Assembly (NCBI RefSeq): GCF_000027125.1
Contig: NC_017626.1
Reading direction: 5' to 3' (one strand)
DNA: 64,000 nucleotides
From: Escherichia coli 042
Lineage (GTDB): Bacteria; Pseudomonadota; Gammaproteobacteria; Enterobacterales; Enterobacteriaceae
Of the stretch, positions 1,639 to 2,277 are shown piece by piece (the first letter of the stretch is position 1; each line of letters begins with the position of its first letter). Below the pieces are notes generated by a model. It saw only the letters and a program-made list of their open reading frames with translations, was not told the origin of the DNA and searched no databases. A program made the translations under genes and the position numbers.

Positions 1639-1815
1639 GTGAAACAAAGCGAGTTCAGACGTTGGCTCGAATCTCAGGGCGTCAATGTAGCAAATGGCAG
1701 CAACCATTTAAAACTCAGGTTTCACGGGAGGCGCAGTGTCATGCCGCGTCACCCCAGCGAAGAGATTAAAGAACCATTACGTAAAGCCATTCTGAAACAA
1801 CTCGGTTTGAGTTAA
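1639..1815 (+). CDS. hicA: HicA mRNA interferase toxin (GTG start)
   Basis: 58-codon ORF not in the track (below size cut-off): VKQSEFRRWLESQGVNVANGSNHLKLRFHGRRSVMPRHPSEEIKEPLRKAILKQLGLS; immediately upstream of hicB. Confidence 0.85.
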   Translation: MKQSEFRRWLESQGVNVANGSNHLKLRFHGRRSVMPRHPSEEIKEPLRKAILKQLGLS

Positions 1816-1839
1816 TCGCCAATTAAAAAGGTTAATGAC

Positions 1840-2277
1840 ATGCGAGAGACAGTCGAAATTATGCGTTATCCCGTCACTCTTACACCCGCGCCGGAAGGCG
1901 GTTATATGGTTTCTTTTGTGGATATCCCTGAAGCGTTGACGCAGGGCGAAACTGTCGCTGAAGCGATGGAAGCGGCAAAAGATGCTTTACTGACCGCATT
2001 TGATTTTTATTTTGAAGATAACGAGCTTATCCCTTTACCTTCGCCATTAAATAGTCACGATCACTTTATTGAAGTGCCTTTGAGCGTCGCCTCTAAGGTA
2101 TTGCTGTTAAATGCTTTTTTACAGTCAGACATCACTCAGCAAGAATTAGCCAGGCGAATTGGCAAACCTAAACAGGAAATTACTCGCTTATTTAACTTGC
2201 ACCATGCGACAAAAATCGACGCCGTCCAGCTTGCGGCTAAGGCGCTTGGCAAAGAGTTATCGCTGGTGATGGTTTGA
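1840..2277 (+). CDS. hicB: HicB antitoxin (alternative start at 1861 would give 138 aa)
   Basis: 145 aa ORF with HicB-like N-terminal domain and C-terminal HTH; AAGG RBS upstream of 1840. Confidence 0.85.
   Translation: MRETVEIMRYPVTLTPAPEGGYMVSFVDIPEALTQGETVAEAMEAAKDALLTAFDFYFEDNELIPLPSPLNSHDHFIEVPLSVASKVLLLNAFLQSDITQQELARRIGKPKQEITRLFNLHHATKIDAVQLAAKALGKELSLVMV

Follow-up and report, generated by a model that had tools for sequence, protein, structure and literature searches.

An intact and presumably functional hicAB toxin-antitoxin operon, almost certainly the ortholog of the K-12 locus, in an Escherichia coli chromosome with a REP-targeted IS1397 nearby

The question raised by positions 1639-2277 of the window, that is, of the whole 64-kb stretch of DNA that was analysed, is whether a toxin gene and its antitoxin gene are both present here in uninterrupted form and whether the insertion sequence beside them has any bearing on them. 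We are left with almost no doubt that in this segment Escherichia coli carries its chromosomal type II toxin-antitoxin operon hicAB, the ortholog of K-12 b4532/b1438, and that the operon is intact and presumably functional. A preliminary description had pointed out that the small toxin gene is missing from the open reading frame track, and this is so because its 58 aa fall below the default minimum of 60 aa. With that minimum the list for positions 1420-2300 contains hicB only, whereas a minimum of 30 aa reveals hicA. The genes of the locus and its upstream neighbour are as follows.

1187..1417, minus strand: yncJ (DUF2554 protein, 76 aa), from the Pfam DUF2554 match (E=3.3e-52) and the yncJ annotation in K-12 and relatives
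1639..1815, plus strand: hicA, toxin, 58 aa, GTG start, from the open reading frame, Pfam, a PDB match and the K-12 alignment
1840..2277, plus strand: hicB, antitoxin and repressor, 145 aa or 138 aa depending on whether the ATG at 1840 or that at 1861 is the start, from the open reading frame, Pfam and PDB

A three-way DNA alignment of window positions 1140-2360 with K-12 MG1655 and strain Ecol_316 had 1221 columns, no gaps and a mean column identity of 99%, and on translation no internal stop was found in either hicA or hicB. The gapless alignment to K-12 together with the translation rules out a frameshift or stop in either gene. Thus, the claim that both genes are intact was borne out, and so was the description of HicA as an uninterrupted frame of 58 codons with a GTG start (1639-1815, plus strand); the check proposed for this claim was an alignment to K-12 in search of a frameshift or stop in hicA, and when it was run neither was present.

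The surroundings are those of K-12. The gene order is rlhA-yncJ-hicA-hicB-ydcR-ydcSTUV-patD, as in K-12, positions 1162-2400 have 100% identity to numerous complete E. coli genomes with annotated yncJ, hicA, hicB and ydcR, and between positions 1162 and 26000 there are only 7 mismatches to strain O17_K12a in 24,839 positions. This gene order and near-identity show that the locus is the orthologous chromosomal hicAB and not a mobile copy. The hicA gene lies upstream of hicB on the same strand, with a gap of 24 nt if hicB starts at the ATG at 1840 or 45 nt if it starts at 1861. K-12 hicAB (b4532/b1438; structures 6HPB, 6HPC and 6U0I) has the same position between yncJ and ydcR, the same gene lengths, the same GTG start and the same distance of 24 nt from the stop codon of hicA to the first ATG of hicB, and it shares His23 of HicA, the arms of the palindrome, the -10-like element and the Shine-Dalgarno sequence that are described below. 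Its HicA and HicB proteins are 95% and 99% identical to those of the window, and it differs in that it does not have the IS1397 that the window has in the REP downstream of yncJ. The strains Ecol_316, O17_K12a, THO-008 and others (WP_001314712.1 / WP_077248684.1) carry a hicAB allele that is 100% identical in nucleotide sequence over 1162-2400, and in them the REP between rlhA and yncJ is unbroken, with no IS1397 there. This is therefore the textbook E. coli locus in a common allele, already known and ordinary, and it has little significance beyond correct annotation, namely, that a real and intact 58-codon, GTG-initiated toxin gene was hidden by a 60-aa cut-off.

The HicA protein of the window matches the Pfam family HicA_toxin (PF07927 / COG1724) over residues 5-57 with 32.7 bits against a cut-off of 27, and it is identical at 55 of 58 positions, over residues 1-58, to PDB 6HPB_A, which is E. 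coli K-12 HicA (E=1.3e-33). Nine nucleotide differences separate the gene from K-12 hicA; six are synonymous and three cause the replacements D16N, C40S and D41E. His23, the only catalytic residue known in E. coli HicA (PMC8138530; PMC11594946), is unchanged with respect to both K-12 and 6HPB_A, and so is its NGSNHLKL context. The K-12 protein cleaves mRNA and tmRNA through His23 in a ribosome-independent manner and is bacteriostatic (PMC11594946; PMC8138530). Judged by homology to solved and characterised proteins, the window's HicA is predicted to be an RNase toxin with a dsRBD-like fold.

In HicB two domains score above the Pfam cut-off, HicB_lk_antitox at residues 10-74 and HTH_3 at residues 94-141. 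The 145-aa form is identical to PDB 6U0I at 144 of 145 positions and the 138-aa form matches 6HPB_B/6HPC, while at the DNA level there are 10 nucleotide differences from K-12 hicB with a single replacement, E97D (145-aa numbering). By homology to the solved proteins HicB is predicted to be an antitoxin that has two domains, covers His23 and includes the HTH domain, and the K-12 literature describes it as degraded by Lon. Which ATG starts hicB is ambiguous from the sequence. RefSeq and the K-12 annotation place the start at the second in-frame ATG (window position 1861, 138 aa), whereas the first ATG, at 1840, has an AAGG eight nucleotides upstream that is the better placed, and the 145-aa form has also been crystallised (6U0I). 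Taking the two proteins together, we infer that the allele of the window, with N16, S40 and E41 in HicA and D97 in HicB, would behave like the K-12 proteins.

The region that is expected to control the operon lies between yncJ and hicA and contains the following elements.

1418..1638, plus strand: yncJ-hicA intergenic region, the hicAB control region, 221 bp, from the alignment to K-12
1589..1606, unstranded: perfect inverted repeat GTAAACA-ATAA-TGTTTAC, candidate hicO (HicB operator), from an inverted-repeat scan
1611..1619, plus strand: TGATATACT, an extended -10-like element, candidate P2, 20 nt upstream of the GTG, read from the sequence
1629..1634, plus strand: GGGAGG, the hicA Shine-Dalgarno sequence, 4 nt before the GTG, read from the sequence and the same in K-12

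Compared with K-12, the control region has 5 substitutions in 221 positions (1420, 1434, 1557, 1573 and 1596) and is thus 98% identical, and all five lie outside the arms of the palindrome, the -10-like element and the Shine-Dalgarno sequence. The 7-4-7 palindrome at 1589-1606 is the only site of its kind in the 64 kb, where 0.02 would be expected by chance. It departs from K-12 only at 1596 in the spacer (C to A), and its arms are identical in K-12 and in strain FDAARGOS_403. The -10-like element TGATATACT begins five nucleotides downstream of it.

What these elements may do is suggested by work on K-12. According to the passages on hicAB regulation in three reports (PMC11594946; PMC8138530; PMC6957337), the K-12 operon has two promoters, of which the upstream one, P1, is CRP-Sxy-dependent with a CRP-S site and gives both proteins. 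The second promoter, P2, is placed just upstream of the hicA start, where HicB represses at an inverted repeat, hicO, as described in the relevant parts of PMC6957337 and bioRxiv 10.1101/2023.12.08.570793. The same passages of the three reports on regulation (PMC11594946; PMC8138530; PMC6957337) state that in K-12 excess HicA derepresses P2 and that the shortened P2 transcript allows HicB to be made and HicA not. Because an inverted repeat has been described at P2 in the literature, we infer that 1589-1606 is probably hicO, and TGATATACT at 1611-1619 is the putative -10 element of P2. Both assignments lean on secondary descriptions of Turnbull and Gerdes 2017.

Searches for other signals in this region gave little. 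Consensus scoring on both strands of 1400-1645 against TGCGA-N6-TTCCA, TGCGA-N6-TCGCA and TGTGA-N6-TCACA gave at best 6 to 7 of 10 matching positions for a CRP-S site or P1, and a palindrome TTTGC-N8-GCAAA at 1483-1500 was considered as a CRP site and rejected because the spacing of its half-sites is wrong. The hicAB locus is not mentioned in Cameron and Redfield 2006. A sigma-70 scan of 1100-2400 returned three promoter-like hits, against 2.1 expected from shuffled sequences, and none of them was upstream of hicA; the candidate P2 was not called by this simple two-hexamer scan. No terminator was found in 1100-2400 by a terminator scan and no RNA family by an Rfam scan of window positions 1-4200 at E<=1. 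A second, imperfect inverted repeat, GTGCTATTTTC-GA-GAAAATTACAC, is present at 1559-1582, 7 nt upstream of the perfect palindrome, and the A at 1573 in the window, where K-12 has C, makes it more symmetric than it is in K-12. It could be a second HicB site or a part of P1.

If the window follows K-12, the operon would be transcribed from two promoters, with P1 under CRP-Sxy giving HicA and HicB and P2 giving HicB only. An excess of HicA would lift the repression of P2 by HicB, and since the P2 transcript would yield HicB but not HicA, the antitoxin would be selectively replenished. The likely reason for this selectivity can be read from the spacing of the elements: a P2 start about 7 nt past TGATATACT would place the beginning of the transcript at or within the Shine-Dalgarno sequence at 1629-1634, and because of such a start hicA would probably go untranslated from this transcript. 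In the toxTA locus of H. influenzae and the mqsRA locus of E. coli, as in hicAB, the toxin gene precedes the antitoxin gene and a promoter further downstream provides for the antitoxin selectively. They differ in belonging to unrelated protein families (RelE/ParE-like ToxT, and MqsR) and are therefore mechanistic analogues only.

One more feature lies at the start of hicA. A two-codon start-stop open reading frame, ATG-TGA, occupies 1637-1642, overlapping the hicA GTG at 1639 and beginning 2 nt after the Shine-Dalgarno sequence that the two share. It is invariant in the three hicA-bearing alleles that were compared, those of the window, K-12 and FDAARGOS_403, and its conservation is no stronger than that of its surroundings. 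It might serve as a translational throttle built into the start of hicA, trapping ribosomes as they initiate and holding the synthesis of the toxin below that of the antitoxin; we consider this idea quite improbable. If true, it would add a third layer atop the P1/P2 control of this inverse-order toxin-antitoxin operon.

How commonly the locus is kept was asked with window positions 1639-2277 as the query against 5,426 complete genomes. A match was found in 5,351 of them and at least 80% of the query was covered in 4,253, leaving about 21% without the full-length locus. Four states of the locus were seen: intact, a 22-bp frameshift deletion in hicA, and two larger deletions. The 22-bp deletion, at the equivalent of window positions 1756-1777, is found in FDAARGOS_403, in which hicB is intact. 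In ST131 hicA and the 5' part of hicB are deleted, from the equivalent of window position 1594 to that of 2038, and in E7-1N7 and SCU-301 a larger deletion, of the equivalents of window positions 1594-2211, leaves about 65-78 bp of hicB. When 30 evenly spaced rows were inspected, an intact hicA was annotated in 20, the frameshift was present in 4 and deletions were present in 6, from which it is roughly estimated that some two thirds of the genomes keep hicA and about a third are without an intact hicA. Since so many genomes lack the full-length locus or an intact hicA, the locus must be dispensable, and since hicA has been lost in several independent ways, being intact is an informative attribute of a strain; this context is mildly useful for population genomics. 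Both large deletions have the same left end, inside the left palindrome arm GTAAACA, after window position 1593/1594, which suggests either decay in steps or a hot spot for breakpoints. The literature has not settled on a biological role for hicAB on the chromosome.

The locus had also been said to lie next to an insertion sequence. This is correct as to the presence of an IS, which is IS1397 at 1-1161, and less so as to adjacency: the element ends 478 bp upstream of hicA, with yncJ and the control region in between.

1..1161, minus strand: IS1397 (IS3 family), the last 1161 of 1432 bp, cut by the start of the window, from 100% identity to annotated copies
1162..1177, unstranded: right half of a split REP (palindromic unit) hairpin, TACGCCGCATCCGGCA, where the alignment to K-12 and Ecol_316 resumes

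Positions 1-1161 agree at 100% identity with copies that carry the annotation "IS3-like element IS1397 family transposase" and represent the sole IS1397 copy end within the window. The element is present in 1,721 of the 5,426 complete genomes. At 1161 its terminal repeat ends with ...TTTGGGGTGCAGTTCA, and homology to E. coli genomes without the IS ends in the alignment at 1161/1162. The transposase frame, orfAB, starts at 1110 and reads leftward, away from hicAB; its orfA matches Pfam HTH_28/HTH_Tnp_1, a programmed frameshift in orfAB is annotated in a homologous IS1397 copy, and the only NCBIfam match for the element is a partial one to IS3. Alignment to strain E7-1N7 showed that the full element is 1432 bp long, has the ends TGAACTG...CAGTTCA and is flanked by a TAC target duplication. 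The left junction of the copy in the window, beyond the window start, is expected to read ...GGCGTTAC|TGAACTG with the TAC duplication. The target was the loop of a REP hairpin, GCCGGGTAAGGCG-TTA-CGCCGCATCCGGC, between the convergent genes rlhA and yncJ, and the intact REP of K-12 folds as a hairpin with -11.6 kcal/mol (z = -2.96). This agrees with the report that IS1397 inserts specifically in E. coli REP sequences (PMC1525189).

An IS1397-like copy that is about 97% identical sits at the identical nucleotide in E7-1N7 (positions 3728-5159 of locus L002, NZ_CP134805.1), also with a TAC duplication. As the relatives that are 100% identical to the window have no IS there, the same REP must have been hit at least twice independently. 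Furthermore, this IS junction together with an intact hicAB was found in none of the 5,426 complete genomes; therefore, with the identical relatives free of the IS, the insertion is recent in its lineage and independent of the one in E7-1N7. IS1397 next to yncJ thus shows how REP-targeted insertion can recur at one and the same nucleotide. In ESC818, SCU-105 and other strains that are otherwise 99.8% identical, an extra IS1397 of about 1.43 kb was seen in the stretch that matches 24000-40000, at approximately 38000-39500 between narU and a leucine-rich-repeat gene, where the window has none; the site is approximate. These extra copies are another sign of IS1397 activity in this lineage group.

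Could IS1397 alter the expression of hicAB, through an outward promoter, through read-through or through the loss of the REP, so that the toxin-antitoxin genes and the IS form one functional unit? In favour of this there is proximity only, the IS end being 478 bp from the hicA start, and the fact that E7-1N7 combines an IS1397-like copy at the same site with a deleted hicAB. Yet yncJ and the complete control region, 98% identical to K-12, stand between the IS and hicA, the transposase is directed away from hicAB, and the split REP is downstream of the convergent rlhA and yncJ, so that any effect would fall on the 3' ends of these two genes. The ST131 deletion has the same left end and no IS there; the hicAB deletions are therefore independent of the IS. 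IS1397, moreover, targets REPs generically (PMC1525189). From the geometry and the IS-free deletion alleles we judged an influence of the IS on hicAB to be very unlikely; the element is an incidental neighbour, inserted independently into a REP, and has no apparent effect on hicAB.

The remaining alternatives concern hicAB itself. The reading frames could be intact in a locus that has decayed in function, D16N, C40S and D41E having inactivated or attenuated HicA so that it is a silent remnant en route to deletion. The repeated loss of hicA in E. coli, by the 22-bp frameshift with hicB kept and by larger deletions, would be in keeping with this, as would the divergence of hicA from K-12 (5.1%), which is greater than that of hicB (2.3%) or yncJ (1.7%). 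On the other hand, only three of the nine nucleotide differences in hicA change the protein, all of them conservatively, and the other six are synonymous. His23 is retained within an unaltered NGSNHLKL motif, and an allele with 100% identity occurs in numerous isolates of independent origin, its product being listed as HicA in RefSeq; decay therefore has a very small probability. It is also conceivable that the same mechanism serves another role and that hicAB is mainly an anti-phage abortive-infection module rather than a regulator linked to stress or competence. A survey has proposed, from genetic contexts, that phage defence is the predominant function of systems with HicA domains (bioRxiv 10.1101/2023.12.08.570793). 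The copy in the window, in contrast, lies in conserved core-genome synteny and not in a defence island, and the regulation documented in the pertinent passages of the K-12 reports is by CRP-Sxy and HicB (PMC11594946; PMC8138530; PMC6957337). We consider a mainly anti-phage role unlikely here, and an intact, presumably functional ortholog of K-12 hicAB is the reading that we prefer.

It had further been stated that the window carries three toxin-type loci, hicAB, a HigBA-like pair and the orphan toxin gene ortT at 11079-11252. For genes of the toxin-antitoxin type this count is correct: in the 64 kb there are hicAB, ortT and a complete higB-like/yddM pair.

11079..11252, plus strand: ortT (ydcX), orphan membrane toxin, 57 aa, from Pfam PF10753 Toxin_GhoT_OrtT (E=8.3e-28, 96.9 bits)
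49407-49685, minus strand: HigB-like toxin, 92 aa, from Pfam PF05015 HigB-like_toxin (E=1.4e-17, 64.4 bits)
49123-49407, minus strand: YddM/HigA antitoxin, 94 aa, from TIGR02607 antidote_HigA (93.7 bits, cut-off 47.7)

The open reading frame of ortT has exactly the coordinates that had been given and matches the Pfam family, and a genome with 100% identity has ortT annotated at the corresponding place. The HigBA-like pair extends over 49123-49685 on the minus strand and was recognised by the Pfam and TIGR02607 matches; its toxin gene is directly upstream of yddM with a 1-nt overlap at 49407, and the pair is annotated in a 100%-identical genome. In K-12 (positions 1184-1328 of locus L008) the HigB-like toxin gene, and precisely this gene, is missing, and what remains is YddM as an orphan antitoxin of the HigA type. 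No NCBIfam model hit HicA, HicB, OrtT or the HigB-like toxin, and RefSeq evidently names these proteins by means other than NCBIfam models.

Two other parts of the window, both assigned from the annotation of O17_K12a, to which they are 100% identical, are absent from the K-12 map of the region. A CatB-related O-acetyltransferase gene is found at about 9578-10387 between patD and yncL, and a type VI effector cluster of PAAR, VgrG (tssI) and M35 metallopeptidase genes, followed by an ISAs1 remnant, is found at about 21094-24583.
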